NCBI GenBank assembly: GCA_965178125.1 | Contig: OZ237745.1 | Coordinates: 124,001-188,000 of the forward strand | DNA from: Bilabrum cf. latius | Taxonomy: Eukaryota | Reading direction: 5' to 3' | Length of the DNA: 64,000 nucleotides | In this document: one piece after another, positions 7,101 to 51,582 of the stretch | How the letters are laid out: the number at the start of each line of letters is the position of its first letter | Numbering within the stretch: the first letter of the stretch is position 1 | Notes under the pieces: model-generated | The model's input: only the letters and a program-made list of their open reading frames with translations | What the model was told of the DNA's origin: nothing | The model's database searches: none | Program-made: the position numbers and the translations under genes

Positions 7101-7172
7101 GTGGGTCGTCTGCCGAGCAGGGTGCAGCTTGCTGTGGAGAAGGGTGACTTGCGGATCGACTGCGTGCGATGA
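1140..7172 (+). CDS. 2010-aa secreted/surface mosaic protein: ELWxxDGT-like repeats, FG-GAP-like repeats, TNFR-like Cys-rich repeats, C-terminal LRR
   Basis: One uninterrupted frame from ATG 1140 (hydrophobic leader MRTTIATSIIPSIIIIYFLL) to TGA 7170-7172 with 12 in-frame TAG (1233, 2070, 2304, 2850, 3240, 3891, 4257, 4758, 4950, 5082, 5433, 6366) and no TAA/TGA. Motifs: GRELF/GEELWR/GRELWV with PGPxSS; FGAAVA, FGAALA..VVVGCPG, LGASVDV..LAAGAPG; CxPGxFxxxGCTVFRDRxC x2; ALVALHNETGG..W..WEGVSC..DVSRNNLFG. Confidence 0.8.
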
Positions 7173-17114: not shown

Positions 17115-17276
17115 AGAAGCAGACAACAACGAGTAGCATTAAGGCTAATCAGATCACGACGGACAACCCACGGGAAAGAAAGCCAACTGCCAGTGGGCGG
17201 GGGCAGCCACTGGCAGCGATTTGATCTCCTTCTCTAGCACATCGGGGAACCTGTCAGATTCCACTTTCTCGTCAGA

Positions 17277-18559: not shown

Positions 18560-18594
<35 letters not shown>

Positions 18595-21500: not shown

Positions 21501-22187
21501 CGCTCCTCGAGGGCTCGGCTGGTGGCAGACCTGGCCAAAGAGGGCCCGTGGGTGGAGGTCAGGGAACACGGGGCCAGGTATGCACTGGACGTGGAGCGGG
21601 TGATGTTCTCCAGGGGTAACGTCAACGAGAGGGCGAGGGCTGGTGGATTTGCCGCGAGCGGCGAGACGGTGGTGGACATGTTCGCCGGGATTGGTTATTT
21701 CACCATCCCGCTGGCCATGAAGGGAGGCCCCTCCAGGGTGGTAGCCTGCGACTGGAACCCCGACGCCGTGGAATGCCTGCGGAGGAATGTGGCCCTCAAC
21801 AAGGTGGGCGGGATCGTGGAGGTGCGGGAGGGCGACAACAGGGAGCAGCTCAAGGACATGAGGGGCAGGGCGGACCGGGTCCTCCTCGGGCTGATCCCCT
21901 CGTCTGAGAGGGGCTGGCCCACCGCTGTGGGGCTGCTCAAGGATCGAGGGGGGCTCCTGCACGTGCACGGTAATGCGAGCGAGAGCGACCTGCCGCCCGT
22001 GTCTCGGGCCTGGGAGGAAGCAGTGGTGTCCTCGATCGACGCGATGGCCCGGGAGCAGGGGCGGCCATGGGCCGGGCAGGTGCAGGCGGTACATCTGAGC
22101 AAGGTGAAAACGTACGCGCCGCGAGTGATACATTGCGTGCTGGACGTGCAGTGCGGAGGAGAGCGTGAAAGGGGTGCATCTGACTGA
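17277..22187 (+). CDS. tRNA wybutosine-synthesizing fusion protein TYW3-kelch-TYW2 (TYW2/3/4 type), 1636 aa
   Basis: N-terminal TYW3 motifs DRSPKGSVD, TLSSCSGRI, FRESG. Central kelch motifs LLFGGR, WVLFGGR, ARYGHA, LGDMWMFD. C-terminal Met-10+/TYW2 motifs VMFSRGNVNER, VVDMFAGIGYFTIP, ADRVLLGLIPSS, VKTYAP. One frame across TAG 18915, 20304, 20673, 20775, 20802 and 21048; TGA stop. Confidence 0.9.
18541..18869 (+). repeat. Coding microsatellites: (GCT)n poly-Ala and (GGTAGT)n Gly-Ser
   Basis: GCT run at ~18541-18597 and GGTAGT x6 at ~18833-18869 inside the TYW gene. Confidence 0.85.
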
Positions 22188-22413
22188 CGAAAGTATGGCT
22201 GGCAAGTTGATCTGACTACTTCCGCACCGGCCAGACGTGGCTGGATCATGTGGTGAGGGTGCACCACACTGTGGCATCACCAATTGGTTCCGATTCTTGA
22301 ATCAAAAATCTTGATTCAACCCCACACAGGGCCTTTCTGTTGATACGGACAATTGTTTGGAGTACATTTGAATCGCTGCACTTGCGCCTGCTTGCGCCAT
22401 CATTTGCGCCCGA

Positions 22414-24801
22414 ATGTCAGCTAAAGACCCTGCTTCAGGGCCACGCTTGCTGTAGCTAGGTGCGCTGCCCTCTGGTGCCGTTCTAGATCAAGCCGCTGAG
22501 CCGCCGCCCGCTCAATCTAAAGACACATAGCTTGGCTCACGTGATATCTTCCAAGAATCCGAGGTGTCACCTGCACGTGGCTTCCACGGAAACGTTGAAT
22601 CGGCTGGTGGACCCAGTGTATCGGAAGCTGACTGCGGGACTGCTACAGAAACAGGAGAACCTCAAACTGCGACATTTCCTGATTGGAATGACCTACGTAA
22701 GCTTTTCGTTGCCCTGAAAACCCCTGGTGCAACCAATTTTCGGCGCGTTCTCGACGAAACCCGAGCCGTCTGTGGCCGACTTGGAGCAGAAAGACCAGAG
22801 GAGCTGATGGTGATGATGAAGCACTTACTAGACGGCACGGAGTGTGTTTTACTGGAATTATTGCCCGAAGAATTGCAAGCGTTGCTGCGGGAGACTTCCG
22901 AGAGGATCGGCACGTCTCTGTTCGCCGTCAAGGATCGGGAATCGATGGTGCTACGCTTGCTTGACACATCTGGAAAGCAAGAAATTGCTCTGTGTGGCAT
23001 CTCACAAGGGGGCTACTACCACAAGGAGCTGGCCGCATCCCTGCTCATACGGCCGATCCTTGAACGTGTGCTCGCCCTAATTGGCTCGAGCAACAATTCA
23101 ACGGCCGCGTGGGCGGCTGTGTGCATCGCCAACTTGTCCCGAGCTCTAGATTTTGACGACAGGTGCAACATCGTCCTAGACATGGGCTTTGTTCCCGCAC
23201 TTGTTGCTCTTCTCGAAGGCCGCTCGCACCGCTGCACCGTGTGGGCGTTGGTGGCCGCCGGCGCCGTGTGCCGCATGGAGGGGCAGGGGCCCAGAGCGAT
23301 CGTCAGCGCTGGGGCTGTGCCCAAGCTGGTGCGTCTTCTCGAGTCGGATCGTCCAGGGGAGGCACGCAACGCAGCCGTAACCCTAGCACAGCTCGCTGAA
23401 GTATCCAAGGAGTACAAATCCATGATCGTGCAAGCCGGCGCTATGCCTTTGCTGGTGCGCCTTCTGCCAAGAAGCGAAGAGAATCTTGCTCGTAACGTGA
23501 CCGCCACCATCCTGAGACTGTGCGTTGGTGATATTGGTGCCAAGCGTCTATTGCTCGCAGCAGGCGGGATCCCGTGGATCGCGTAGATGCTCTCTTCCAC
23601 GAAGAGACTGGGGGCCTTCGAGGCTGCGCAGATCTGCTCGACCATTGCAAACGGGTTCACAGAAGGGAAGCAGGCGATCATCGATGCAGGGGCAATCCCT
23701 CCGTTGGTGCAATTGCTGGCATCTAGCGAAGAGAACCTTGCATACTTTGCCGCAACAACCTTGGGCAGACTCGCGTGGCAGCACCCCGGGGGCTAGATGG
23801 AGGTGCTCACGACACCTGGCGCGCTGGCAGGACTCGTGAAGCTCGTGGAATCCGCCCCTAAGAATGAAGCAAACAAGGCTTGCCTCGCGCTCTAGAACTT
23901 GACCTTCAATTTACCGCTTGGTCGGGCAGCCGTTGCCGACACTGGAGGCATTCACGCCGTCTTGCATCGGTTGGGCACAGAGGGCGATCCGACAATAGAC
24001 TAGCGGACTGCCCTTCAGACCCTGACGCACATGCTCATTCAGTGCAAAGCCGCACGGGAAGCAGCACAGGATGCTAACGGTATGCCAGTGCTCGTGCGAT
24101 TGCTTCTGCCGGACAACAACAGGATCGGAGAACTAGCAGCGTCAGTCATAGGCCACGCCGTGCACATGCACGAGCCGTGTCAGCTGCAGGCCGTCGCGGC
24201 CGGTGCAGTCCTTGCCCTCGTGCGCCTGCTGGGTTCCTCCGATCGCCTCGAAGGGAAAATGGCTGCCACGTGCCTGGGCTAGATCGCATGTGACTGCTAG
24301 CCCGGCATTAAGGCGCTGCTGGAAGCAGGGGCGATCGGTCGGCTGGTGCCAATGCTGGCAAGCCTGCCGGATGGATGCGCATGCAGCGCTGCGGTGGCCC
24401 TGGGTCACGTGGCACACGAGAATCCTGCCGGCCGAGAGGCGGTGCTGGAGGCTGGGGCCGTGCCTGGCCTGGTGCGGATGATGCAGGAGGGGGATGGGGA
24501 GGATCGGAGGTGGGCAGCATTTGCGGTTGCCGAAATTGCCTTGAGGTTCGAGCGAGGGCAGGAAGCTCTGCACGCAACAGGTGCGGTGCCGGCAGTCTTG
24601 GTTCTGTTGTCAACTCCATGGCGCGAGCGCGTTCCCCTCGCAGAGTCAATGCACTGCCTAGCGATTCTGCTGGCTGGTTCTGATGTAGAGCGACTGCTTG
24701 GGGATGCTGGCGTCGCTGCGGTGCGGGAGGTGGCAGTAATGGGCGGTGCACCCGGTGCTGGAAAGATTGCAAACCAGATCCTGCGTCGTCTGGACAAATG
24801 A
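22414..24801 (+). CDS. Armadillo-repeat protein, 795 aa
   Basis: About 11 ARM repeats (AGAVPKLVRLL, AGAIPPLVQLL, AGAVPGLVRMM). One frame from ATG 22414 to TGA with 8 TAG (22453, 22528, 23584, 23794, 23893, 24001, 24280, 24298). Confidence 0.85.
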
Positions 24802-26148
24802 GAAAGTCATCTGGTTGCTTGTATAGGTTGTATATCGACGGCTGGATGTGTAGGGTTGCTGGCGTTTGCTTCGAATGGAGGTGCCACCGGCACCGATGCA
24901 GTTGCAATGCGTATGTGCAGGCAAGTATATACGAGGTGCAGGCAATGCGCGGGTGCAAGCAAATGCGGATGTGCAAGCAGTTGGAAGTTGGGTATTGATG
25001 ATTGCTCGAAGCAGTCTGGCCTGCCTTGCCTAGACAGCAGGGCACAGCCGCTCCGAGGTGCGGGATGGCTCGCAATGCGGACCATCACGCAACCGACCGA
25101 CCGAAGCCGGCCAGCTACGATGAGCGCGACATGCACTCTGAACTATGGACTGCCCTATGCAGCCCAAGTTCGAGTGCCGCCTTGCTCACCCACAGAGGAA
25201 GAGCCAGGAAGGCAGGCACTCAGCCCACCCCCCCTCTCTCCCCCATATTGCATGCCGCCCACACTCGATGCGCAGTAGAACACAGCTACAACGAGTGACA
25301 CTCAGCCCGGCAACCTGCCCCCACCGGACAACGGAACCTGGACTGGCACGATCCAACGGTGCTCATGCAGCAGCTGTGACCCGCACCCGCCAGTAGCACC
25401 ATACCAGCTTGCTGTCGCACTTCTCAGCCTAGCCCCCTTTGTGCTTGGGAAGCACGAGCGTCTCACCAACGCAGCACCAATTGCCCTGCACCACTCTCTC
25501 GCTCTAGCACGACAATGACATCGCCACGATCCGGCAGCAGCCCCGCACGGGCACGCCGGCCCGCCATCGTCCAGCACCGAGCCAGCGGCACGAGAGTCCG
25601 CTGGCGCAGAAACGCCGGAGTCACGAGAGGCGGGGCGCATGCTGGAGCGAGCGACGCCAAAGCAACACGCGAGGAGAAAGCCGTGGACAAGGCAAGAGGC
25701 AGGCGAGACACAAAGGGGAAGGGCAGCGCAACAAGCAGACAGGCAAGCACTACGGGGATGCAAGGCGAACACCTACCACATGCACCGCGACGGCATGACT
25801 AACCAGACCGTGGCTAGCTCCTCTCCACCTGCAGCGACAAGCTTGACTCGGTCAGATCAAGAGGGAGACCAGGTGAAGCTCCACGGCACACAGCGACAGG
25901 CACGCAAGCGCGCAACTGCCACGGTGCGCCGGCTCCTTCCACCAGGCCTGTTCTCCATCAGCTGACCCCGCCTCACTCGCCACCAGCAGGGAACCTGTGC
26001 ACTCGGGCAACAGCAGCAACTCGGCATCCCTTTTCTCATCCTCCCGAAGGACCATCACCATAAACAACATGGAACAACATGGGCAATGGACAGCTCGGCA
26101 GGCGGATGCACTGAAGTGCACTTCACTGCGGCGAAGCGAGCTCCGGAT

Positions 26149-27975
26149 TCACCTCAGAGCGCGCGCGCGCAGACCGCCCGCACCTGCCCTGGCCTTGCCA
26201 GCTCGCGAGGAGCCGACCATGCCCTTGCCGCTGCCCTTGCCAGCGGGCGCCCCAAACACGTTCCAGAACCGCAGCGTCTCATCAGCGCCGGCCGAGCACA
26301 CCGTGGCCCCGTCAGGGCTGGTGGCCAGGTGCAGCACGCGGGCAGTGTGCCCTGTGAGCTCCTTGACGCGCGCCAGGCTGGGGTACTTCCAGACAGTCAG
26401 CTGGTTCTGGCTGTACCCATGGGACGAAAGCAGCTCCTTCTCGTGGGGATTCCACGCCAGGGCGCACACCTGGGACCCGGTGTCCACCGAATCCAGCTGC
26501 GCTCCCGACTCTGCGTTCCAAAACTTGATGCACCTGTCCGCCGTGCCGCCTCCCGAGGCGAGGGTGTGCCTCTCCCAAGGGCACCACGCGAGTGCCTTGA
26601 CCGCGGCGCGGTGGCTGGCAATCTTGTGCGTAGGTGCCACGGGGCCAGAGGCGGGGGCGGCGCATGCCACACCAGCGGCACCAGCGGTGGCCGCGGACGA
26701 GGCAGCGTCCCAGATGCACAGCAGGTTGTCGTTGCCGCCAGAGGCCAGGAAACGTCCGTCCGGTGACCACCGCAGGCCGCAGACCTCCTGAGAGTGTCCT
26801 GCCAGCGTGGCCACGGCATGCTGCCTGACCCTGACGTCGTGGTGCACGATGGTGGCGTCCCTCGATCCAGTTGTCAGCACGTGCTTGTTCCAGTCCATGC
26901 TGCCCACGCGGTCCTGGTGCCCGTCCATCGTGCGCACGAGCTTGCTCTGGGTGACGTCCCACAGCTGGGTGCGGGCCTGATCCGTTCCCACGGCCAGATA
27001 GCCTCCACCCTCCTTGACCCACTTGACCGAGGTGACGCTGTCTCCGCTGCCCAGTGTGGTGAGCTCGTCGATGCCTCCCGTGGATGCGTTCCACAGGTAC
27101 ACCGTCGGGCCCAGCGCAACGGCCAGCAGGTCAGCGGCGCTCCAGTCCAGCAGGTTGAGGTAGTAGTCGTTGGCCAGGTCGGGGGCGTCCAGGATCCGCT
27201 CGGGGGCGGAGGGGATGTGGCGAGCGCTGCCGGCGGAGGCAGAGGCGCGCCCAGAGGACGCGCCCGCCCTCGCCCGGCTGCCGCCGTTGCTAGAGTACAG
27301 GACAGAGTGGCCGCCATGGAAGCCCTCAGGGGCCTCGGGCTTCTTGCCCGCGAAGGCAAGCACCCGGTGCCCGGTCAAGGACTCCCCGGCGTCTCCTCCC
27401 GCGCTGGAAGCCGCGGTGGCGCTGCCGTCCAGAAGGCTGGACGACAGCGCTGCCTCGAACTTCCTGCCGGCCTCGCCGCTCGCGGTGCTACCAGTGCTGG
27501 AAGCAAGGGCGGCGTGCGAAGCGTCGATCTTCAGGCTGGCGCGCTGCGGGATGAACCGATCGGCACCACCCTGCGAGACGAACGAAACAGTTGGTTGCCA
27601 CAAAAGCGCAGTGAATGAAAAGCAGCTAGGGAGTCTATAATTCAAGCTTAGCAATAGCACACACTAATTCTGCCTTGCAATATACCCTATAGAACGCAGG
27701 ATCGCGTGCGAGAGGTCTCAGCTGAGTTTCGCGCGCGAACTATAACAGAGCCATAAATGCCACTATATCGGAAGATCCGGTACCTACATGGCCTCCATAT
27801 AGATCAAACTAACCTTAGGAGTCTTGCTTGACGCCGAACTACGCTTTGAAGGGGTCTTGGACGAATCCGAGGGACCCTCATTGGCCACAGCGGCCGCCTG
27901 CAAGGCCTTGCGCTTCCACCGGGGAAGCAGGGCCGAGTCAAGCGGCTTTTCGCAGCACTTCAGCGCATTCTCCAT
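26149..27975 (-). CDS. CDC20: APC/C activator CDC20/Fizzy
   Basis: C-box DRFIPQR, PERILDAPDLANDYYLNLLDWS, WD40 repeats (HSQEVCGLRWS, LASGGNDN, AVKALAWCPW, ADETLRFW) and an LR tail. Exon 1 is 27975-27814 (PRWKRK); intron 27571-27813. TGA stop; no TAG. Confidence 0.93.
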
Positions 27976-28219
27976 CTATACACGATCTTTTTGCGTGAAC
28001 ATCTTTTGCTTTTTCGCTTCAATAGCTTTGGGGTACTCGTAAGAGTGAGGTGCCCGATTCGCGCGCCAAATGCAAAAACCGGAACAACAATATGATCCGG
28101 GTCATCGGTTTCGATCCAGTGGAACTGTGCTGCTACAGCGATATCTTCAGCGATATCTTCAGCGAAACACCATCCACTTGGCACACCTGGTACTACGGGC
28201 TGCTAGCACCTTCCACGTT

Positions 28220-28723
28220 TCAAAGTGTGGCGTTGCTGGAGGCACACAGCGCTCTACATCCGGCCCACACCGACAGCAACAGCCCGATCCCGCAGCCTAC
28301 CAGCGGAGCCCCCACAATCTGCAGCCGCAACTGCCACCACAGCCGGCCATCCATGGCTAGCTCCAGCGGACTACGCGCCGATAAATCGCACATCGAGCCG
28401 GGAGTAGCCTGCGCTGTGCACCATCCACCCAGGCACACGGCAGCCACGAGGCTCAGGTCCTCCACCAGCCGCACCAAAACGGCGTGATTCTGTACCATGC
28501 TCAACCAGAAGGCATCGTGTTTCCATTGTTTAGAGTGGCCTGCCTCCTCACCGTTCCGTCTCCTGCCCGCACGCACAACGGCTGCCAGTCCCATCCACTC
28601 CCATGCCATGAGGGCGAGCAGGTGCTGGCATATCAGGCTAGATGGGGAAACAGCTGAATTTAGCAAGTTTTCCCTACCGTACACGACCGAAATTGTCCCG
28701 CCACCGCCGCTGGCATTGGCAAT

Positions 28724-28754
<31 letters not shown>

Positions 28755-31700
28755 GCCGTGTTGCTTCGAGCCTCGGCGCTCCCATCTGCTTTCTCACTTT
28801 CAGGCTGGTCCCGACCAGTAGCACTCTCCTTGTCACTATCATCACAGCTTAACGACCGATCCAGCTCGCCGCCCATCATACTCGCCGCTCTCATGTCCGC
28901 AAAATTGCTGGTTGCATCCCCGCCTTCTGTCTGCTCATTCTCCTACCGCTACAGTCGATCCTTGCTGCCATAGGGGTGACGACCATTGCTAGCCCTCAGC
29001 TCTGGGCTGCGAGGAGGCAGGTACCTGCGCATGCGGCCTGCCGCGGGCGCGACAGATGGCCGCAACCTTCTCTTGCACACCCCGTGATGCACACACAACA
29101 ACGTCCCCTTGATACACAGGCCAGCCACTAGGCCCCCTAACAAGATCAAGCCGCATACCGAGAGCCGCGCTGCAGCCATCGACGCAGCCAGCACTGCCAA
29201 CGAAACGAATCGCCACGACAACAGAACCCACAGGATTTCACGGTTCCCAACAATCGCGGTTGTATCCTCTGCAGGACGGATCGGCGCGCCACTCGAATCG
29301 GAGCTCGAGGCGGCAAAGACACTCTGCACGTTGACCATGCTACCAGAGTCGTATATATTGCGCTCATCATCCATGCTTGCACAGGCGCCTGGTGCAACGG
29401 GTTCGGCCCGTGATGTTTCAAGTGCATCGACCCAAGCCCCTGCGGGTTGGCCATGACCGCCGCTGCGCTGCCCGTCGTGTAAAGGTGGCATGTGTCTAGT
29501 GATACTTGCAGATGGATCCTCCTCGGAGTTGAACTGGCTCTGCAAGCCCACCTAGGAGGTCACGACCCCATCGGAACTGCGGCTGACTCGTTCGGTGGCC
29601 GTAGATAATATCCCCAACTCCTATGGTTGCATGATCTCGCGCGCCTCAGTGACTGCCAGGCCCACTGCATCCACACCGACAAATGCATCTGCCCCCGACC
29701 TATCTTCTGTCCCATGCACTGGCTGAATGCCTTCATCTGATACATCATGATACGGTGCAGATGGTGCCATTAAAGTTGGCATCAGCCGCATAGTCAGGCT
29801 CGGATCGGGTGCAGACATGCGAAGTAGCTTGACTCCGTCACTTCCCTCAACACCAAGCAGTCGACTGCACCGCGCCCACGGCACCCCACACCACGACATC
29901 AAAGCCAACACCCACACCATACCACTCGCCACGCAGTAAGCCCACAGCCACACGCCCGCATGGACCGACGAGCCATGACACTGCCACACCGATGCCGCCC
30001 GCCCGCCCCGCAGGCATGGCAGCTCCACATTGGCCCGGACGCTCCCTGCATCCACCACGGGCAGCCACACGCCGCCCTCAGACTCCCCCCGTAACACATG
30101 CACGAGTCGCTGTGCCACGCTGCCGGCGCTCCTGCCGCGCTACATGCTCTCCGCCGTCTGCAGGACCGGATGGATCACCACCTGCACATCGATCTCCACC
30201 GGCAGCACCTTCGAGCATGCCAGCGGCTCAATACGACGCACAGGTGACGAGTCCGGGGATAACGGATCGCGCCTGCTGCAGTTGCGATCCATCGGCTGTA
30301 GCGCGCGGTGCTGCAACACACGCACCTCAATCATGCGATCGCTCGACACGCCGCCTGACACACGGATGCCGGTACTGTTCGTGCTGCTGTTGTCCTCGCT
30401 CCATTCAGCCATCACGTCTCTAATGTCCATGGTCAGCTCGATCTCCAGGATGGACAGCTGCGTGGACTCAGGATCGGGGTACGACAGGCCATAGCCCAGA
30501 CGGTCCGGCCCGATCATCTGCGCCCGCGGCCACATGTTCTGATCAAATGCCAGCGTGAATGACACGAAGGCGTGTGAGGCGGGCTCTCGCTGGGCCCAGC
30601 GCGACTGGAATGTGTCGGGCACCAGCAACGCGCCCTTGTCGGGCTCGCATGACAAGACATGCTCAGCTGCACTGGGCTAGATCTACTCGCACCCCAACGG
30701 CGCGAATGCTATGCTGCCACGCGCTGACCGGGCGCTGCACGCTGACCCAAGCGCGGGCTGGCCGGTCCAGTACGAGTTCCACACCCTCGAGATCGATGCG
30801 TCCAGACGCCAGCCGTTCCACTAATGCGAGCTTGCTTCATGCTCTGCATCCACAGCAATGCGACTGCCCTCGTCGCACACGGCCCGGCATACGGGCCTGT
30901 ACCTGTACGCACCCACAGGCGAAGTGTCCCCGCACTCCCACCGGCCACCCAACACGCGAGGCAGTGAGGACTCGGGGTCCGGAGGCACGATCCTGTCGAG
31001 CCGAGCACCGCGGTACCGGGCAAATGGACCCTGCAGTGGCGACACCGTGGTGGGCACGTACCACGATGGATTCGAGTCCTGAGACTCGTTGCGCTGGCTG
31101 TCCTAAAGCGGCAGATGACTCGGCCCATCATTCAATGCCTTGCCCTCCGCATGCCAGAGCCCGTCCGTGGGGCTCTAGTCGCGCCTGAACTCCCCGCCCA
31201 CCGTCACGGCCCTCTCCATGGACGCCGCGGGATAGTCAAAGTGCATCAGATCTGCGTTGAACTCTGTCGTGTTGACATAGTACTGCACCGCACAGGCCAG
31301 GCGGGCCTCTCTTCGCCAGGGCGGCAGTGAGAGCTGCTTTCGCGACCAGGCTTGCGTCGCGTCGGTCACACCCGATGCAGACCAATGCGACTGATTGCCA
31401 CTACTGGTGTTGCTAGCAGTGGGGGCGCATGATTGCGAAGAGACACAGGACAGGTCGTCCAGCAGCACGAGCACCTTTGCTCCAGACGCCTCGCAGTACA
31501 GCCCCGGCGCGAACAACACTGAGGATGCGCGCTCTGGTGTCTCCACCGGCACCGAGTCCACGATCACCTGCGTCACATGCACGTGATTCAGCCTCCAGGG
31601 GTACTCGTGACTCGGCAGCCCGTGATTGACCAGGTCCTCCCCATCCACAGGCAGAATGGCCACAGTGCCGGGAGGGTACGTCACCGTGACGACCTGGTGC

Positions 31701-32912
31701 CACCGATTGTACATGCCCGCCCCGTGCTCCGGTATGCCTGACGCAGGAGCCCCCTACCACTCGATCACCTCAGACAGAGAAGCAGCGGTGATGCTGTCAA
31801 TGTAGCTCTCGTCCAGCAGGAAGCTCGTGTGGTTGGCCAGCTCGGTGCCCACGGGTGGAGCCCCGCTGCAGTTGGGCTCGTGGCCCGGTGGTGCACGAAT
31901 ATCACCTTTGATCTATCCACTGTAGCTCAGGTCCGGCCACAGTGTGGCCTGCCTGCATGTGTCGTTGGGCGCGATGGGCTGGTCCATCGGAGTGCACGCC
32001 TCGGAGTAGATCTCCCGGCGGCATGTGACGTGGTGCATGATGTACCGGGCGTGTCGCATGGCATATGCCTACTGGTAAGACATCTGCACTCCCGTGGACA
32101 ATGGATAGTACGCCCACTGCCATCCCGGATCTGCCATGAAGAGCTACGGAGCCCAGTTGGGGACGGTTTTGGTGCTCGTCGCCGGAGGCCAGAATACGGT
32201 CGTGTTCACCCACTGCCAGTATCCCGATGTGACCAGGCCGCCCGATACAAACTCGTATGGATTGTTCACGTCAGGAAACTAGTAGAACCACTGCTCCTCC
32301 GTCCACGGTTCAACGCTTCTGGTTGGCGGGTACAATGCCGATTCTGGCGGAACATCTTTGCCCGCTCGCCGAAGCGCGATTGCAGGGCCGGCCTGCGCAG
32401 TGGCTGCAGCTGGTATGTATCCTGATGCAGCAGCTTGCAAGCTTGGCATCCCACCTACTGAAGGATGCTCACCGGACGACGCTAGTGGGCTGACCTCGCC
32501 AAATGGTCCGTAGGTCCAGTTCCATCTGTGCATGCCGACCTACCCCTTCCACGGCTGCTGCACTATGCCACAGCCGCTTCCAACAGCCCTCGCCATTGCA
32601 TCGCTTGGTCGAATCACTCTCACTGACCGCTTTCGACCGACAGATTCTCCGATGCCGAGATCCGAGGCTGGCGGTGCAGACTGCCAGGAGGAATCTGCGA
32701 TAAAGATATCGATATCAGTACAACTTATAGTGGCTAAAATTAGATTGATTTGCATTTGCAGCATGCAACTCACTGCAGTTGGATGGAAAGCTGGCCATTC
32801 CTGTGTTCAACGAAACATCTGCTGCGCTGATCTGCCTGTATAAGTCTTTTTTCGCAGCTTCGACCATCCAAACAGCAATGCATAGTATCAGATGAATACT
32901 TAACGACCACAT
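28220..32912 (-). CDS. Uncharacterised ~1550-aa protein with signal peptide, large Trp/Cys-rich ectodomain and several C-terminal hydrophobic segments
   Basis: ATG 32912 (MWSLSIHLILCIAVWMVEA) and a 40-nt GT-AG intron at 32734-32773. A single frame then continues through 16 TAG and no TAA to TGA 28220-28222, linking nine track ORFs. Confidence 0.75.
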
Positions 32913-33271
32913 TGGGAACGACTTTTGGTTTGCTGGATGCGAATCAACCTGGATTGTTTTGGTCGCGTCACTAATCATGATCGGATGAGTGAGAGGAGGA
33001 ATATGAGACTCGCCGGCGGAGTCTCGGGCCGGCGAGTCGCGGCGAGTCACCTCATCGCAACACAGCGTCTTGAAGGCATTGACGGTTCTTGCTCGACTGC
33101 CTGGGCTTACTGCATGCGCTCCTTCTCTGCCGACTCCTTGAAATCATGTTGGTCAAGTTGGAAACTGGCTAGCATAAAGCCAGGTGGCGTGCCGCTGCCA
33201 CATCCTCATTTTCATGCAGGGTGGATGGTTTTGCTTGGGGTCCACAAGGCCCTCCAGCCAGCCAATATGAT

Positions 33272-33342
33272 AGCAACAGCCCGATCCCGCAGCCTACCAG
33301 CGGAGCCCCCACAATCTGCAGCCGCAGCTGCCACCACAGCCG
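33272..33342. repeat. 71-bp direct repeat of 28275-28345
   Basis: agcaacagcccgatcccgcagcctaccagcggagcccccacaatctgcagccgca(a/g)ctgccaccacagccg occurs at both sites with one mismatch. Confidence 0.9.
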
Positions 33343-33932
33343 ACCTGTAGGACCCCTTAGTTATGAAATGAACATATTTGGGTATAGTAGCGCACTCACG
33401 GCTTCATACTCGCACGGTGACGAGCTATCTTGGCACCATGACCGCTGAGCAAGCGCTATGTGCGAAACAGTCAGAACACATCTCAACTCCACACCAATGC
33501 CCGCAGCCACTGCACAAGACTCGGACGCCTGCTAGCACACAGCTACAATGCCCGACTCACAATCTCCTGGTCTTCCAACAGCTGCACTTGCTGTCGTACT
33601 ATTCCACCAGCTGCATAGTACATAGGCAGCCTGCCAGTGGGGGCTAGTTCTGCTGCATGCCCAAGCGGAGCCTGCCTATCCATCGCACCTTCAGCCGGTG
33701 AGTATTTAGAGCGTCGCACCCAGTGCAATGATGTGGTGGTCGCACTGCCCCCACACTTGGATACTTAAGCTTAATGTTGACCACGAAAATGATCGCTGCT
33801 GCTGGCTGGCCGCGCTCGCGATGGTCTCCCCGACATCGGTCGGTGGGTGGCGCTAGTAGTATTCCATACAAATATGCACTAGCTACAACAAGAACGAACA
33901 TGTACCACGCAATGACATACAGAGAAACACCA

Positions 33933-35396
33933 TTATGATCCAGCTCCTCCACCAGCTCCGCCGATCCGTTCTTCCAGCGGGCCCACTGCAGGCGCCTGCA
34001 CCACGCCGTCCTCCGTGCCAGCAGCCCCACCAGCTCCAGCTGCATCCCCTCCAGATGCCGCCGCGCCTCCGCTGGCCGCTCCGGAACCTGCCCCACCCGA
34101 GCTCGCACTCGCCGCCGCGGCCTCGCCGGTTCTCATGTTCTACATAGCCTTGCCCGATTGGGTGCGCACCCTCTCCACCTTGCTCCGCATGAGCGCCTCC
34201 AGGACTCGCATGCCCCCGCCCTCCCTGATCACCGCCTGGTTGGCGGGGTGCACGCTCAGGTTTCTCAGCGCCCTGGCGCACTGTGCCTGCAGCTCGGTGG
34301 CGTCCAGCGAGGCTGAGGCGAGGATGGGCGGGATGCCGCCTGCTTCCCCGATGGAGGCCTCGTTCTCATCTGCGGGCCAAAGAGAGAGGTACATGACCGC
34401 AAAAAGATGTAGGCTCGCATGCTGATGGAAAGAGCTGCAACGAAGACAAAAGATTCGCCTTCCTCTCTCGATTTGCAACGAGGATACAGAATAAAATGTC
34501 GCGACACACCGGAGGGCCCGATCCCTCAAGCCCCGCGCGGGATGGACGAGCAGCAGCGAGGAAATACCACCAGCTGCCCGCCCATGTCCCCGCACGAGCG
34601 CACCGCATGTCAATCTAGCGCCGAAAGGTGGCCCGGCCTCGTCTTCGAATGATGTGACGGGCCAGGTGGATATAGGCAGCGCAGCATATACAAGCAAGCA
34701 ACACAACACGGCAGCAAACCGACTCGATCGTCTCACCGTTGACAGCTAAGTTTGCAAGCGCAGCTACCGCCTCAATGCGCACCGGCACTGAAGCTTTCGA
34801 AGCCAACAATATGAGAGGCGGCAGGGCGCCCCGCTCGGCGATCAGTCGCTTGTTGTCCGCATGAACAGCCAAATTGGCGAGAGCTTTGGCAGCCTAGCGC
34901 TATGTGCTGACCTACTCGCAGCCTAACAAGTCAACAAGCATGTCGACACCCCCTTCTCGCACCATTGTGACCTGGTTGTCTCCTGACACGGACAGGTTCG
35001 CCAGTGCATGGGCCGCTAGCCTCTTTACCTCCGGGTCTTCCGACTTGGTCAGGGGAAGGAGCAGCTTGAGTCCACCCAATCGCACAATCTAACCCTATCT
35101 TCGCGGCTTGACGGCCTCGTTTGCGAGCCGCTCAGCGACTTCACGCTGAATCTCTGGCTCGGCGCCGTCCGCATACGTTATTAGTCGAGCTAGGTGCAGC
35201 TCCAGCTCCTCAATGAATCCCTCATCTGCGTCAAGACGTAGACATCAATACTGAAATTCTTAAGCGATGAACCATACGGGATCGAACGAAGGAACGAGAT
35301 AAATCGAATCTCCATGCAGAGCTCACCTTCGTCGGGTCGATCAACCACAGTTGTGCTGGAGGGTCCCTTGCTCGCACTACTCCCCTAATTACCCAT
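33933..35396 (-). CDS. N-myristoylated VAC8-like armadillo-repeat protein
   Basis: MGN*GSS myristoylation start; introns at 35226-35326 and 34370-34736. Reads QREVAERLANEAVKPRR*G*IVRLGGLKLLLPL, RLAAHALANLSV, T*R*AAKALANLAV, ELQAQCARALRNLSV. Seven TAG (35385, 35095, 35089, 34912, 34900, 34894, 34140); ends in TAA at 33933-33935. Confidence 0.88.
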
Positions 35397-35617
35397 ATTA
35401 TACTAGTCTTAAATGCGGGGAAAGGCTTGCGCCTGTCCCTCGCTTTGCGAGTACACAAGGGAGCGATCTAGAATGTCTGCTGCCGTTTGCGGAGACCGCT
35501 ATGTATTTCTTAAAGTGTTCGTTACATTTGAGTAACGCGCAATTACAAAATAAGATTATCCCTTTGGTTCGCCGAAGGTGCGCACTAGATTTCGACCAGT
35601 AAATAGAAAGCTGCAGC

Positions 35618-37767
<2,150 letters not shown>

Positions 37768-38149
37768 GCGAGCGAGCGAGCGAGCGCCCGTTACGGTCGG
37801 CGAAGACGGTGCTCTGCGCGCGTCATTTGCCACTCAAACGTGCGCCCTGAAGGGCGGCACGGGCTTGCAGCGCGTAGGCGGCTATTCCCTCGGTGACGCT
37901 CCTTGGCTGTACCTTGTCTGGCGCTGAGATCGTCCCGTGGGGACCGCCTGCTCTTCCTCTTGCTTTTTAGCTTGCTTGCTTGATGCCAGCCCAAGATGGA
38001 AACTTGTTAACACGCATCGTTAGTTTGCTTGGCTCCAAATGCTTGGCACCAATTCATTTAGGCCTAGCCTCCATGCTTGGTGGTTCGGAGCGAGAAATGT
38101 AGTATCTTTGCTTGCTTGTTCTCAGTGTCCCGCGAAGTTTGGTGGTAGC

Positions 38150-39944
38150 ATGAGTACAGCCAGCACTAGCACATTCCCAAAGCTTGCTATTCTGGGCGGG
38201 ACACAGGGATGTGCGGATGAAGTTGCCACAGGTAAGGCATGGCTGTTCGTTGCCGAGCTGATGATTCGTAGATCGACATAATCGCTGCAAGTCCGATTGT
38301 CGATCGGCAAACTCTCTCGCAGCCTTGCTCGAACTAGATGCTCTCGAAGCTAGGAAATCGGCCCCCTGGCCAGAGACCACCTGGGGCTCGATTGGTGCTG
38401 CCGAAGACAAATCGACGACATGGGCGCTGTCGACTAAGTACTTTGACGCGACGGTGAGATGAAGTACGACCGAATCATGGACCAATGGTAGAAGGTGTTG
38501 ATGCATTGCTGCTCTGTGCGTTCTGCTTACTTTGCTGCAGGTCAGTGTTGAAGTTCCAGCGAAGAACGGAGTGAAAGATCATGGACTGCTTACCGCTAAC
38601 TGCAAGGGAGCATAGGCGCTAGTATTGTGCGTAGATGCTAGATCTCACACAAAGCAGTCCATGTCTGCATACCTGGCAGGCGTTGGAGCCGCACTAGATG
38701 CCTGCGAGGCCGCTCAGGATGCCGATGCGAACTTCTTGGTACTTGCGCATGCAGGTGAGGCCGGAAGTGGCCTGTGGGCCGCATTTCGATAGTCTTCTGG
38801 GTTAACCTCTGCATCAGCTTCGGAGTAGAAGTCTGATGGCAAGGCAGAGACGGCGGCGTCTGGGGCTGGGAGTGCGGGAGACGGTGCTGCCGGGGCGACC
38901 GGTGGAGCAGGTGCTTCGAATCGGTGGCTAGTGCTCGCCTCGGAGGACATCCCCGAGCCCGCATCAGCCTTAGAATCAAGTGAATCGTACGATGATCTCC
39001 GGTCTGCGTGCATCGATTTCACCATGGACCGCGGGTGGGAGCTCATCGACGCCGATTGCGACCTGGCGGCTGCCACGCGCCAATCGCGGGAGAAGGACGG
39101 CATCGCTAGGCTGAGAGAGGCGCTGCAGGTAGTCATGTGGAGAGGGATGGAGAGGAAGAGTGGGGGGCGGGGAGGGGGCAGAATGGGCATGGGAATCGGC
39201 GGGATGGGGCTTGCCAGTGGTGGCATGGGTGGTATGCTGGGGATGCTAGGCGGTCGTGCAACGAGCGAATCTGACGCAGATGAGAGCGGTAAAGCCTCGC
39301 TTGGGAGCACTGGCTCGCCCTCCACAGCGGCTGCATCGGCATCGGCCGCGACAGCGTCTGCCACAGCCTCTGAGACGTTGGCACGGGGGTAGGGTGAGGA
39401 TGAAGCGGAGGCTGCAGGCAAGCGCAATGGGTCAGGTGCTGGCAGTGATTCCGACTCGAAGGCAATCGAGGACGGCGCACCGCCCGCCCCGGACGCGAGC
39501 GAAGTGGCAGGCTGGGAGCTGGGCGGGGAGGAGGCATACCTTCAGGCACTGGCGAGGGGTGACCCCACCGTGGGGGGTGACCCCGAGGGGACGGGGGAGG
39601 GGGCTAGAGCCGGATCCGGCGAGAGTGCGAGTGGAGCGGGACAGGGGACAACGTCACCGGCTGGGGGTGCTGGCGAGGAGATCGGCATGGAGCAGATGCT
39701 GCATATGATGGAGCAGATGCGCGCGGTGAGGCAGCGGGTGCTCGCCACTGGAGAGAGGACGGAGGCTGACCGGGCGCAGGCCGAGAAGCTTGTCATGCAA
39801 CTGGCGGCCACGCTAGGGCTGGGTGGCGAGGAGGAAGAAGAAGAATAGGCTGGGGATGGTGATGGTGCGGGTGCTGGGAAAGGGGATGCTGGAGGTGCGG
39901 CTGGCAGTGACCAGGGCAGGGCAGGGGAAGCAGACGGACGATGA
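38150..39944 (+). CDS. AAGAB: Alpha/gamma-adaptin-binding protein p34-like
   Basis: Introns at 38232-38322 and 38454-38540. Motifs WALSTKYFDAT, GA*ALVLCVD, RGWELID, DGIARLREALQVVMW, MEQMLHMMEQMRAVR...DRAQAEKLVMQLA. TAG at 38613, 38790, 38826, 39390 and 39846; TGA at 39942-39944. Confidence 0.75.
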
Positions 39945-40226
39945 TGGCTAAGTCACCTGGCCCGTGTTGATGCGGACTTGATCAATTGGTGTGAAGGTTT
40001 TGGGAATCGCAATCCTGCCAGGACCTTGTCCCTTGTGCAACGCTACTGTGGATCAATCGAGATTTTCCCAGCACCGCACGAATGCGCGGCGCCGAAGTGG
40101 AATGCTGCCCCAACGGCTGCTGCACTGATTCGTCCTGCTGTGGGCGTCCTGTGTCACTCGCGACAGATCCTATTCTCCTGCTGAGAAACTTTACTATACC
40201 GAAAGGGGTGCAGATATCCTACAAGC

Positions 40227-43200
40227 ATGTCGATGAAGCTGCGGCATATGAAGACCTTGCTGCCGCCGACGGACGGAATGTGCAAGGTCACCGCAATCTG
40301 CTTTTCTCCGAACAACAGGCGGCTCGCCGTCATCACCGTAGAACGAATAGTATATCTGTTTGACGAAAATGGAGAGAGAAAGGACAAATTCTCAACAAAG
40401 CCCAGGGAGAAGGTGAGTTTCGAGCGGTTCCGTAACCAACGGCATGGAGACATTTCGCCTTCGCCTTGTCTCCCGTGCTGCAGCGTACGCGGTTGCCCTG
40501 TGTGGTTTTAATTGCATACGATATAGGGCCGCGTTTCTACTACTAGAATCCTGGCATGCGCAGGGAGGCCCCAAGACGTACATGGTCACGGGAATGGCTT
40601 TCAGCCCGGATTCCACAAAGCTGGCGGTAGCCCAGACAGACAACATCGTATTTGTGTATCGGTTAGGTTTGGAATGGGGCGACAAAAAGACCGTGGCCAA
40701 CCGCTTCTAGACGGAAAGCCCGGTCACGACCGTGTGCTGGCCGTCTGGACGGCCGAACGACGTGGTCTTCGGACAGGCCAACGGAGCCGTTCTGGCGGGA
40801 CACTCCAAGGCGGGTTCCCGAGCAGCTCCTTGCACAGCACTCTATGATGGAGGCTCGTTTACCGTGTCATCCTGCGCCTCCCCGGACGGGCTCGGCTTCC
40901 TGTCGGGTCATTCTGACGGCAGCATCTATCGCTTCCACTTCGGGGACGGCACCGCCGGCCCCGTGCACCAGCGGTTCGCGGTGCACAGCGCTGCCCCACA
41001 GGCCCTGTCTTGGGGACAGAGCGTGCTTGCGGCAGGGAACGACGGCAGGGGTGAGTGAATGAGACGATAGGAGACGAGACGGCCACGCACAAAGCCCGCA
41101 TGTCGAACCACGCAGGTCGCTGGTGCCCCTCCCTTCACCCCTCACCGCCTCCTCCTCCCCGGTGCAACGCGGCAGCTCTTGTTGCTTCTCTACGCCCCCT
41201 TTTCGTTGCGTTTGGATTGACCTTGTTGTACGCAGTGACTTTCTACTCCGACGACGGCGCCGCCGAGCGGACGTTCGACTATTCGGACCAGGCCGACCGT
41301 GTCAAGGGCTTCCAATGCGCAAGCTGCAGCCCGGGGGGCGACTCGATGGTCGTGGGTAATTTCGACTGCTTCTTCGTGTACGCGCTGTCCCCGAGGTCCA
41401 GCGAGTGGGAGGAGGCCGAGCGCAAGGACGTCAGCAACCTCTACACTGTCTCTGCACTGGCCTGGAAGCCGGACGGGTCCAGGGTGGCCCTGGGTGCCCT
41501 CTGCGGTGTGGCCGACCTGCTGGACGCGTGCGTCAAACGGGTGCGTTACAAGGGCAAGTTCGAGTTCACGTACGTCTCGCCCTCTCAGGTGATCGTCAAG
41601 AGGCTGTCGAATGGTGCCAGGATCGTGCTGAGGAGCTCGTACGATTGCGAGGTCACCAGGATCAACATATACAGGGACCGATTCCTCGTCGCTCACACGC
41701 CTGAGACGCTGCTGCTGGGTGACCTCGAGTCCTGCAAGCTCTCCGAGGTGGCCTGGCGCAGCTCTGGCAAGGAGCGCTTCAACTTTGACCACCAGAGCGT
41801 GGCACTGGTCTTCTCCAGCGGTGAGATCGCCGTGGTGGAGTACGGTAGGAACGAGACTTTGGGCGGCTGCCGCACGGAGCACATGAACTCCCACCTACTC
41901 TCCGTGCGGATCAATGAGCGGCCTCCCTCCGCCGACGAGATCGAGAGGATGGGCGGCGCGGGGGCCGTGGCGCCCACAGGGTTGGCGCCGGCGGCGTCTG
42001 GCGCGGGCGCCGACGTGCCCGGCGAGGGCGATGCGGGTGGCTTCACCAACAAGAAGCTGGCGTACCTGATGGACGCGCAGACGGCCCGCGTGGTCGATCT
42101 GGCCACTGGGGAGACCACCGCGCAGCTGCAGCACGACACCCGGATCGACTGGCTCGAGCTCAACGGGAGGTGCAACCTCCTGCTGTTCCGGGACACGAGG
42201 CGGAGGCTGTACCTGTACAACATCTACAAGGCCGAGCGGCACGCGCTGCTCACGAGGTGCAGCTACGTGCAGTGGGTGCCGGACTCGGACGTGGTGGTGG
42301 CGCAGAGCGGAAGCACGCTGTGCATGTGGTACAACATCTACGCCCCTGACAAGGTCACGACCTACGAGATCAAGGGCGACGTGGAGGAGATCGAGAGGGT
42401 GGAGGGACGCACCGAGGTGGTGGTGGACGAGGGCATCAACACGGCCGCCTACACGCTCAACGAGGGCCTCATCGCCTTCGGGACGGCGCTGGACGACCGT
42501 GACTATCCGCGCGCGATCGACATCCTTGAGGGTCTCGAGCTCACTCCAGAGACGGAGGGCATGTGGAAGCAGCTGGGCGATACGGCGCTCAAGACGTCTG
42601 GCGATCTGGCGGTGGCGCACAGGTGCGCGGCGGCGGTCGGCGACGTTGCCCGCGCCAGGTTTCTGAGCAAGACGCTCAAGCTGGCGAAGCTCGCCGAGCG
42701 CAAGCTGGGTGGGGACGGGCGCGATTTCTGGATGGTGCGCGCCCGCATGGCCCAGCTGCGGGGCGACCTGCGCGACGCCGAGGGCATCATGGTGGACGTG
42801 GGCAAGCTGACCGAGGTGATCGTCATGTACCAGACGTTCCACATGTGGGGCGACGCCGTGGACATCGCGGAGAGCCGGCAGATGGAGGAGGCCGCGGCCA
42901 TGCAGCAGCAGTATTTCGAGTACCTGCAGCACTCGGGGCAGGAGGACAAGGCGGCCGCCAAGCTGGAGAAGGACCACGACCAGAAGGGGGCGGTGGCCCT
43001 CTACCTCAAGGGCGGGTACCCCGGGAAGGCCCTCAACATCATCACGAGCAACCCAAGGGCCTTCACCAAGGAACAGATCGAAGAGGTCGCCGCCGCGCTC
43101 GCCGCCGCGGAGATGCCGCAGAAGGCGGGCCAGCTGTTCGAGACGCTTGGCGACAACAAGCGGGCCATGGATGCCTATGTGCGCGGCAACGCCTACAGGT

Positions 43201-46037
43201 CGGCCGTGGACCTCGCCCGCCGCGTGTTCCCCGGAGACGTGGTCCCCCTGGAGAAGGCATGGGGCGACTGGCTCGTGTCCCGGCGGCAGGTGGAGGCCGC
43301 CATCCCTCACTACATCGAGGCCAGGGCACACACCCAGGCCATCGAGGCGGCGCTGCAGGCCAGACAGTACACCAAGGCCTCCCAGCTGATCCGTGACTCG
43401 CTCACCGACCCGGACGAGGCGGGCCCGTACCTGCTGCAGCTCGCCAGGCACTTCGCTTCGACCTCGCGATTTGACGAGGCGGCGCGGTGCTACGCGGACG
43501 CGGGCAGCCCCGAGGAGGGCGTGCAGATGTACGCCACCGCCAGCCGCTGGCCCGAGGCCCATCGGCTGGCGCAGACGTGCATGTCGGAGGAGGACATGCA
43601 GCGGTTCTTCCTTGCCACGTCTCGGCAGCTCAAGGCGCAGGGGTCGTATAAGCAGGCCGAGAAGGTTCTGCTCGAGGTGGGGCTGGTGGACGAGGCCATC
43701 GGCATGTACAAGCAGGCCAAGCAGTACGATGCCATGGTGAGGCTGGTGGCGCAGTACAGGAGGAACCACCTGCAGAGCACGCACGAGCTCCTGGCCAAGC
43801 AGCTCGAGGCGGAGGGCGACTTCCGGGCGGCCGAGAGGCACTACGTGGAGGGCGGCAAGTGGGACGACGCCGTGCGCATGTACCGCAAGGCCGACGACTG
43901 GGCGGAGGCTCGGCGCGTGGCACGGACGCACGGAGGGCCCGACGCCGCGGACCAGGTGGCCTTCGCGCAGGCCGTCGCGATCGGTGGGGAGGAGGGGGAG
44001 AGGCTTCTGAGGTCCCGGGGCCTGATGCGGCAGGCGGTGGACTACCTGTGCAGGCAGAAGAACTTCGACCGGGCGCTTGAGGTGGCCCGCAAGCACAGCC
44101 CTGAGCAGGAGCCCGCGGTGCTGAGCAAGCGCGGGTACTGGCACGAGGACCACGGGCGGTACCAGGAGGCGGAAGAGGACTTTGTGGCCGCCGAGAAGCC
44201 TAGGGAGGCGATCGAGATGTGGTTGCACGCCAAGAAATGGACCAGCGCCCTGCGGCTGGCGGAGGACTACGACCCTGCCAGCGTGCCGCGGGTGCTGCTG
44301 GGTCATGGCCAGGAGGTGGCATCGCAGGGAGACTACGAGCAGGCCGAGAGGCTGTTCCTTGATGCCAAGAAACCCGAGGAGGCAATCGACATGTACATCA
44401 ACGCGAGGGACTACCCCGAGGCGCTGCGCGTGTGCAAGGCCAACCTCCCCTCCAAGGTAGCCGAGGTCAATGCCAGGATCCAGGAGCACGTTGGGGGCGG
44501 CGGAGCCGGGGCCGGGGCAGGCATGGGGGGCGGGCCGGTGGAGGCAGCCCGCGGCGGCGCAGGGGACCGCAGCCGGGGCGGGGAGCAGTCCCAGCAGCAG
44601 GTGCAGGAGATGATCCGCGGCAGGAACCCGATCGAGGTGGCTAGAGGGCTCGAGGACGGCGGGCAAGCCAACATGGCCATCGACGCCTACCTCGCCGCCG
44701 GCAGGTCTGCCGTCTCGTCAGAGAGTGAGCTGGTGGATGCATGGCTGCGGGCCGTGCAGATCGCGCAGCAGCGCGTGAGCTATCGCTACAGCGAGGTCGC
44801 CAGCGCGGTGGGCAACCGCCTGGCTGAGATGGGCGACCACGAGCGAGCCGGCGACCTTCTCGCCGAGGTGTCTCAGTTCAAGAGCGCGATCGACTGCTAT
44901 GTCCGGGCCAAGGCCTGGGACAAGGCCAAGGCGCTTACCTCTGGCCCCGCCAAGCAGTTTGCCGACTACGTGCAGGCTGCTCACACGCGGGCCATCGTGA
45001 AGCGGGGCGGGGCCAGCGGGCAGGAGGTCTCGGCCGCGATCGCCGGGGACGGCGGCAGGGCGGGGGCGGAGCAGGCACTGGAGGAGCTCTCCGCCGCTGG
45101 GCGGTGGGAAGAGGTGCTTGAGCTGGCGGCCAAGACCGGAGAGTCGCAGGTGAACAGGCACGGCGCCCGTTACCTCCGCATGGTAGTAAGCAAGGAGGAC
45201 CCTCTGGAGGCGGGCAGGGCGGCCGTCCTCATGTCCAGGTTTGGGGCCCCCGCCGTTGCCAGCGAGAGCGATTCGTACGAGAGGCTGCTGCGGCTGGTGC
45301 TGGGCGGGACCAAGGCGTCGCACCCCGGGGACGACGCTGTGGTGGCGCTGCGGGAGGTGCTGTACGGCGTGGTGGCCAGGCTCAGGAAACCGTCCAAGGC
45401 GGCGGGCGCGGGGGAGGCACCCGAGCCCAGGGACATGGCGCGGCTGGACCGGCTGCTCCTGTGCTCCCACTATGCCTCGATGCGGGTGGCCGTGATGAAG
45501 CAGAACCTACCCGATGTGGGTCTGCAGCTGAGCATTGCACTGCTGCGCTACTGCGACCTTGTTCCCCCGGACAGGGCCTACTTGGAGGCCTCGATGGCGG
45601 CCAAGGAGAGGGGCAAGCTGAGCCTGGCCTTCGTTCTGTCCAACCGACTGCTGGACGTGGTGGAGGCGGTGGAGGACCAGGACGTGTCCACGGTGGACAA
45701 CGACGACTTCGAGGACACTGATTTGCCTCCTCCGTCCACGTTCAGGCTGCCGAGGAGGCCGTGGCTGACCAAGGCCGAGATCGACGATGTGAGGAACTGG
45801 GTGCTGCAGAAATCCATGGATGACGCCATCGACACCAAGCTGCAGCCGGGGGACATTCCGAGCCAGGAGCAGGCGGGGTGGCAGAAGTGCGTGGCGTCGG
45901 GGTTCCCAGTGGCCGCCAAGGACATGGTGCGGTGCTCGGCGTGCGAGAGCCAGGCCATCCGGTCGGCCTGGAACGCGGTGGTCGGGGCGAGGAAGGCGTG
46001 CCCGTGGTGCGGGGCGGCGCAGACGCCGTACTACTGA
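40227..46037 (+). CDS. IFT172: Intraflagellar transport protein 172
   Basis: MKLRHMKTL..., [69 protein letters not shown], then TPR-like repeats and a C-terminal Cys motif. Introns at 40413-40563 and 41051-41235. One in-frame TAG at 40708-40710; TGA stop. Confidence 0.96.
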
Positions 46038-51286: not shown

Positions 51287-51582
51287 GGATACGCCGCGCC
51301 AGAAACTAGTTTTGAGCTGGATGCGATGGTCTTGATGAGTACTTTGTCATTAACAGCTTGTTCCAATAGCGATCCATCGTCCTTTTCGAGGTAACGCGCA
51401 CTATCTGGTTTCCGGATCCGATCCGGCGAAGGTCCAGTCTGGAAGCACTTTTGCCAGATCAGCGATCCCTTTGAGAAGGTTGAGCATTTGCCTACAATTC
51501 ACGGTGGCGTTGTAAGGCGAGGCAACTCCCGCAATGCACCTGATGCCGACCGCCAACGCCCCCAATACAATGCCTCTATGCA

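Follow-up and report, generated by a model that had tools for sequence, protein, structure and literature searches.

The DNA described here is a window of 64,000 nucleotides (64 kb) from Bilabrum cf. latius (assembly GCA_965178125.1, contig OZ237745.1, positions 124,001 to 188,000 of the forward strand); all coordinates are those of the window. It is eukaryotic nuclear DNA with short GT..AG introns and a G + C content of 56-64% per 4 kb. The gene in question encodes an ARM-repeat protein and lies at 33933-35396 on the minus strand. Seven of its codons are TAG. Sequence comparison indicates that UAG is very probably an ordinary glutamine codon of the nuclear code, with UAA and UGA still serving as stops, and that the seven TAGs of the ARM gene would be translated as Gln.

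Structure and transcripts of the ARM gene

The gene has three exons, begins with an ATG at 35396 and ends with a TAA at 33935-33933, as given by scripted translation of the spliced model (Table 1). The spliced coding sequence (CDS) is 996 nt in length, 331 codons and the TAA stop. It contains in-frame TAGs at codons 4, 67, 69, 128, 132, 134 and 263, and neither TAA nor TGA interrupts the frame ahead of the terminal TAA. An original prediction, made from the sequence alone, had reported six in-frame TAGs in the 5′ half of the gene, at 34894-35396. All six are present, and the interval extends from the last of them to the ATG; the seventh, in exon 3, had escaped the count. The strings quoted with them, MGNqGSS, KPRRqGqIV and EqVSTqRqAAKALANL (q, TAG), are likewise all found. 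The product of exon 1 is MGNqGSSASKGPSSTTVVDRPDE. Translated with NCBI table 15, exon 3 has Q at its TAG and a stop at its TAA. The G + C content of third codon positions (GC3) is 0.52 and 0.64 in exons 1 and 2 and 0.73 in exon 3. The 5′ half of the gene holds six TAG and two CAR (CAG or CAA) codons, the 3′ half one TAG and five CAR; this apparent excess of TAG towards the 5′ end falls short of significance (Fisher P = 0.10).

Contigs from four public runs were placed on 26001-46000. Run X1 is a DNA run in which the whole stretch is unspliced. X6 record 14 (1118 nt) and X7 record 21 (1112 nt) match the window in three blocks, 35463-35327, 35225-34737 and 34369-33884/33886, without a gap or a differing letter. 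Both splice joints are seen in three runs (X5, X6 and X7) from two studies, and the spliced contigs reproduce exactly the exon structure that had been predicted. Across 33884-35463 no base differences between contigs and window are listed, and T stands at all seven TAGs; the TAGs are thus present in spliced RNA. The ATG at 35396 is the first of the transcript contig, the 5′ untranslated region (UTR) being free of ATG, and an in-frame TAA sits 5 codons upstream of the start. No in-frame TGA occurs between the terminal TAA and the contig end. Under the standard code the mRNA would give MGN followed by a stop.

Table 1. Coordinates of the ARM gene, of its TAG codons and of the ORFs given as examples of GC3 classes. 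Residue counts are those of the 27 orthologue-like proteins described in the next section.
Feature	Coordinates	Strand	Content or support
5′ UTR to contig limit	35397..35463	-	contig end 35463 in X6 (record 14) and X7 (record 21)
Exon 1 CDS	35327..35396	-	ATG 35396-35394; 23 codons + 1 nt; joint 35225/35327
TAG codon 4	35387-35385	-	exon 1; variable column
Intron 1	35226..35326	-	101 nt, GT..AG; joint in X5, X6, X7, not in DNA run X1
Exon 2	34737..35225	-	489 nt; ARM repeats, five TAGs; translation, Pfam, orthologue columns
TAG codon 67	35097-35095	-	exon 2; Q 21, R 6 of 27
TAG codon 69	35091-35089	-	exon 2; Q 19, L 3, R 2, E, D and M 1 each of 27
TAG codon 128	34914-34912	-	exon 2; variable column, Q 3 of 27
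TAG codon 132	34902-34900	-	exon 2; Q 19, L 3, five others 1 each of 27
TAG codon 134	34896-34894	-	exon 2; Q 27 of 27
Intron 2	34370..34736	-	367 nt, GT..AG; joint in X5, X6, X7, not in X1
Exon 3 CDS	33933..34369	-	more ARM repeats, Ala/Gly-rich tail, TAA 33935-33933; table 15 translation, Pfam
TAG codon 263	34142-34140	-	exon 3; variable column
3′ UTR to contig limit	33884..33932	-	about 49 nt past TAA; contig ends 33884 and 33886 in two studies
High-GC3 example	41055-46034		no TAG
High-GC3 example	8816-11086	-	no TAG
High-GC3 example	36157-37038		no TAG
Moderate-GC3 example	975-7169
Moderate-GC3 example	28223-32806		16 in-frame TAGs

The ARM protein and the residue at TAG

Exon 2 matches Pfam Arm (PF00514) with E 2.8e-24 in 3 stretches, and exon 3 adds one more stretch (E 1.1e-06). 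The AlphaFold2 model of exon 2, built from the orthologue alignment, is an all-helical solenoid (predicted local distance difference test, pLDDT, 94.9; predicted template modelling score, pTM, 0.90). In the model, residues 105-118 form a long helix that contains codons 132 and 134, and residues 40-48 a short helix that contains codons 67 and 69. The top Foldseek matches of the model are ARM proteins (probability 1.00).

An HMMER search with exon 2 (TAG as Q) gave 6002 proteins at E <= 0.001, of which the best 150 were considered. Most of these, 123 in number, are giant multi-repeat ARM proteins that match through many repeats with 26-41% identity; they were excluded as matches to paralogous repeats. 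The 27 kept are short orthologue-like proteins of metagenomes and protists (e.g., P0140, P0050 and P0071), 138-496 aa in length, 44-68% identical over exon 2 and collinear with the ARM protein from the N-terminal region, about residue 30, onwards. They are unannotated ('hypothetical protein' or nameless); the only named orthologue, P0140, is a hypothetical protein of the pelagophyte Pelagophyceae sp. CCMP2097. As far as the predicted proteins show, this family writes the glutamines in question in standard codons. The 27 proteins were aligned to the spliced ARM protein with each TAG entered as X.

The column of codon 134 is invariant for Gln (Table 1), the cleanest single piece of evidence on residue identity in the window. 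Summed over the seven TAG sites, BLOSUM62 scores are 422 for Q, 145 for E, 104 for R, 102 for K, 26 for S, -237 for Y and -310 for L, which bears out the earlier preference for Gln over Leu, Glu and Tyr. Scorable columns, with at least 14 homologue residues, number 267. Gln is the majority residue in nine of them, and at these the ARM protein has CAG/CAA-Gln in four, TAG in four and Lys in one. The probability that four or more of seven TAGs fall in these nine columns by chance is 2e-5 (hypergeometric). In a separate MAFFT alignment of 23 of the 27 proteins (four fragmentary or insert-bearing rows omitted), the consensus reads ...RQxQIVExGGL... and ...VQRQAAKALANLGVN..., and Q110 of exon 2, which corresponds to codon 134, is again invariant. 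The motifs RQxQIV and VQRQAAKALANL, shared by the family and the ARM protein, are the strings that had been expected of oomycete or ochrophyte homologues; they were found in the orthologue consensus, in which these two groups were not singled out.

The repeats of the protein itself had also been put forward as evidence for Gln, and the two repeats compared, EIQREVAERLAN and ELQAQCARALRNL, do use CAG. Aligned on the A-L-x-N-L helix end, the five ARM repeats read EIQRE, EVKRL, STqRq, PVRIE and ELQAQ. At the two TAG helix positions the paralogous repeats carry Q/K/R/Q and E/L/E/Q, with Q in only two of the four and one of the four. The internal-repeat argument holds, but is softer than that from orthologues.

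A sense UAG that is read as a residue other than Gln (Glu, Lys, Arg, or Leu, Tyr or Ser) is very improbable. This explanation draws on the variable columns at three of the seven ARM-gene sites and at a further TAG in IFT172 (see below), on Arg in six of the 27 orthologues at codon 67, on the many coiled-coil TAG contexts that would suit Glu or Lys, and on codes elsewhere in which UAG stands for Leu, Ser or Glu (PMC11687900). It is opposed by the column of codon 134 and by those of codons 67, 69 and 132, which are 70-78% Gln; by a Gln sum about three times the next, with Leu and Tyr strongly negative; and by CAG/CAA-Gln at four of the five remaining Gln-majority columns.

The ARM protein resembles yeast Vac8 (PDB 5xjg, 6kbn and 7ycj), a myristoylated ARM vacuolar adaptor; both are ARM solenoids with glycine at position 2. 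Among natural proteins of solved structure Vac8 ranks first in sequence (E 2.3e-32) as well as in fold (TM-score 0.84-0.85 on the query). On the target the TM-score is 0.29-0.30, only a portion of Vac8 being matched. The ARM protein has 331 residues and the Vac8 chains 506-563. A Vac8-type N-terminus combines Gly2 for myristoylation with nearby cysteines for palmitoylation; in the 23 residues of exon 1 Gly2 is present and cysteine is not. Designed consensus ARM proteins outscore Vac8 against the ARM protein, so the Vac8 likeness is generic to ARM repeats. The name VAC8-like, given in the original prediction, is therefore apt for a resemblance; size does not support orthology, and the protein should not be filed as a Vac8 orthologue.

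The N-myristoylation pattern, G-{EDRKHPFYW}-x(2)-[STAGCN]-{P}, requires that the protein begin with Met-Gly and that residue 6 be small. As a sequence motif MGNQGSS fits it (G2, N3, S6 and S7), the start is the first AUG, and 11 of the 27 orthologues begin with MG. The proposed myristoylation start agrees with these data; residue 4 itself is uninformative on the code. From its fold and N-terminus, the protein would most likely serve as a membrane-tethered ARM scaffold in the manner of Vac8.

Stop codons in the reading frames of the window

Twelve open reading frames (ORFs) with TAA and TGA as the only stops are 399-2065 codons each and 11,625 codons in total. TAA/TGA-free runs of this length have chance probabilities of 7e-14 to 3e-3 per ORF. 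The in-frame counts are 76 TAG, 0 TAA and 0 TGA, vs 94 TAG, about 40 TAA and 184 TGA expected from off-frame densities. CAG occurs 293 times and CAA 105 times in the same ORFs. In-frame TAG is found in 13 of about 17 recognisable ORFs of the window, generally in polar contexts, and reflects the code of the organism, not one odd gene. Pfam domains in the twelve-ORF survey include those of a second ARM protein, a leucine-rich repeat (LRR) protein, a Maf-like protein and an adaptin-binding p34 homologue. The Maf-like ORF contains no TAG. The second ARM protein (22372-24798, 8 TAGs) gave 6 weak matches (E <= 1e-10) in the database searched, none of them an orthologue. Two more transcript-supported sequences, the IFT172 exon 40562-41049 and the adaptin-binding p34 gene (38540-39140), hold in-frame TAG; the contigs that cover them show 0 other letters. 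Beside the IFT172 TAG there is a column of conserved Gln, in which the ungapped alignment does not place the TAG. The N-terminal exons of the NmrA-like and CDC20 genes contain no TAG.

TGA follows 14 and TAA one of 16 listed ORFs; TAA terminates the ARM gene and ORF 49280-51346. TAA as a second Gln codon was rejected: taking TGA as the only stop does not lengthen real ORFs, and TAA is then confined to the extreme ORF edges. TAGs in the ORFs of HSP90 and CDC20 were rejected as sense codons, being located in non-coding upstream parts of these ORFs. ORF-length totals under alternative codes were rejected as sole evidence and are indecisive, since a sense TGA also lengthens ORFs in GC-rich DNA.

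Use of TAG varies with codon bias. In four genes of GC3 0.81-0.93 (IFT172 main exon, endoplasmic reticulum (ER)-type HSP90, CDC20 and HPPD) TAG makes up 0 of 126 Gln-type codons, vs 76 of 474 (16%) in the twelve ORFs of GC3 0.62-0.70 (Fisher P = 5e-9). In this respect TAG resembles CAA: both behave as synonymous codons that are not preferred. The same figures would fit an inefficiently decoded codon: a UAG with dual function (sense and stop), or one read through by near-cognate tRNA-Gln(CUG) with no dedicated suppressor tRNA, so that the code is leaky or context-dependent. Ambiguous stop/sense codes are known in ciliates. Such a leaky UAG is nevertheless highly unlikely here. Seven readthroughs in the ARM gene, or 16 in ORF 28223-32806 (1528 codons), would leave almost no product unless decoding were efficient. 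The in-frame density of TAG (0.0065 per codon) is near the off-frame density (0.0081 per position); TAG is therefore not strongly selected against. TAG ends none of the homology-defined C-termini examined (ER HSP90 with HDEL, IFT172, NmrA-like and HPPD).

Decay of a pseudogene by C-to-T change of CAG to TAG (repeat-induced point mutation, RIP, or deamination), or editing of the mRNA back to CAG, would also let TAG read naturally as Gln and would suit the lower GC3 of exons 1 and 2, but is rejected as barely credible: the ARM gene has neither frameshifts nor in-frame TAA or TGA, both introns are precisely spliced in three runs, the ARM consensus residues are intact (as the Pfam E-value and the model pLDDT attest), spliced contigs have T and not C at all seven sites, and 12 other long ORFs across the window hold in-frame TAG.

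Several points weigh against the reading of UAG as Gln. The identity of the residue, held with high confidence from the alignments, depends for the most part on four conserved columns, all in the same gene family, since the second ARM protein lacks orthologues. Codons 4, 128 and 263 of the ARM gene stand in variable columns and are uninformative on the residue; Gln at these codons is deduced solely from the premise that TAG means the same everywhere. The TAG column of IFT172 is variable too, with Q in 20 of 97 (the plurality), P in 18, I in 14, L in 12 and A in 12. Some ORF ends are not gene ends; that of 36157-37038, for example, falls inside an intron. That the spliced contigs come from RNA runs is a guess, and one of these runs, X5, carries the flag 'probably DNA'. 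Low-level editing may still occur, since contigs drop rare variants. The window contains no tRNA gene (0 by ARAGORN; in Rfam no family at gathering score) and no eRF1 gene. Confidence that TAG is a sense codon in Bilabrum cf. latius is very high.

Further ORFs of the window bear TAGs. ORF 17115-22184 (plus strand, 1690 codons) has TYW3 at residues 67-271, Kelch-type repeats at about 587-670 and a TRM5/TYW2 methyltransferase domain at 1482-1623, and looks like a fused wybutosine-synthesis gene; six of its 7 in-frame TAGs lie between TYW3 and TRM5/TYW2. ORF 3-704 (minus strand) is a coiled-coil frame cut by the window edge. Its GC3 is 0.81, and its single in-frame TAG is the q of DDDATIqELRKQ. 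ORF 56323-59082 (minus strand, 920 codons) contains tandem peptide repeats, with a GGPDG unit about 8 times and a NPFDGRESPDSMAESG-type unit 3 times, as well as 3 in-frame TAGs, and has no Pfam match.

Assembly and gene-structure observations were made at three other places. At 28723-28756, inside ORF 28223-32806, X1 depth rises to about 879 from about 13 in the surroundings, and loose ends and back-joints are numerous; this indicates a short repeat that breaks short-read assembly. At the 5′ end of the HPPD gene (35605-35771, plus strand) the start codon 35618-35620 stands directly before a GT donor and coding resumes at about 35771; an X7 contig differs from the window upstream of about 35605. 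A further 5′-UTR intron in the HPPD gene is suggested. Contigs of X5 and X6 join 37715 to 42623 (plus strand) with 4 extra letters, both sides being GC-rich Ala/Gly-coding low complexity; the join is probably an assembly chimera and not a transcript.

The code, the organism and related codes

TAG at Gln columns together with 0 internal TAA or TGA window-wide makes the code a match to NCBI table 15. By analogy with other lineages in which UAG has become Gln, UAG would be read by a tRNA-Gln with a CUA anticodon, and eRF1 would no longer recognise UAG efficiently.

The ER-HSP90 gene (8816-11086, minus strand) ends in HDEL and then TGA. One unnamed database protein is 98% identical to it over 80% and the next best match is 65% identical, so few close relatives have been sequenced. 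The best named match is Cafeteria roenbergensis (63%), and the best named match of IFT172 is also Cafeteria (48%). A quick maximum-likelihood tree of IFT172 (LG+G4) comprised the window sequence and 31 of 120 listed homologues, 20 of the rows being named or source-labelled and 11 taken from the 14 top-ranked matches (nine nameless). The window sequence is sister to Cafeteria roenbergensis and one unnamed sequence (Shimodaira-Hasegawa-like approximate likelihood ratio test, SH-aLRT, 100), and this group belongs to a starred clade of stramenopiles that also includes oomycetes, ochrophytes and a labyrinthulomycete. The tree is of a single gene, and the rows of both the window and Cafeteria carry a flag for unusual composition.

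Reassignment of UAG alone to Gln is reported in PMC11687900 from the fornicate Iotanema spirale, the ciliate Protocruzia tuzeti and two phyllopharyngean ciliate lineages. According to the same text, UAG alone encodes Leu in a rhizarian and Ser in the green alga Scotinosphaera, and both UAR codons encode Gln in ulvophycean green algae, Hexamita, Streblomastix, aphelids and many ciliates. No stramenopile is among these lineages. The codes of Iotanema, Protocruzia and the phyllopharyngeans agree with that of the window in having TAG as Gln and TAA and TGA as stops. The organism of the window differs from these lineages in being a stramenopile, by the IFT172 tree, and GC-rich (56-64%). In the UAR codes a UAR stop is likewise read as Gln; a tRNA-Gln mutated in its anticodon is the presumed decoder. 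They differ from the code of the window, in which TAA is not a sense codon: it is absent from the interior of the 11,625 codons, and two genes end in it.

No report of nuclear stop-codon reassignment in stramenopiles or bicosoecids was found in a literature search that left most subscription journals outside its scope; PMC10120064 and PMC13768787 proved to be unrelated. A known code variant thus appears to be present in an apparently new lineage. It is possible, and tentatively proposed, that this is the first nuclear stop-codon reassignment in Stramenopiles, in which a GC-rich relative of the bicosoecid Cafeteria independently made UAG alone a Gln codon and kept UAA and UGA as stops.

If so, a free-living flagellate lineage of culturable type joins the very few cases in which UAG and UAA are uncoupled. 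Such uncoupling is rare: PMC11687900 lists a single fornicate, a few lineages of ciliates, a rhizarian and one genus of green algae. A stramenopile with a genome of 60% GC would add a further independent origin. The complete avoidance of TAG in the high-GC3 genes, next to a share of about 16% in ordinary genes, may offer a view of a recently captured codon as it becomes established in a genome. In this organism, gene prediction with the standard code would cut short or overlook the majority of ordinary genes. With in-frame TAG in most ORFs, annotation, proteome and phylogenomic use of its genome require TAG to be read as Gln.

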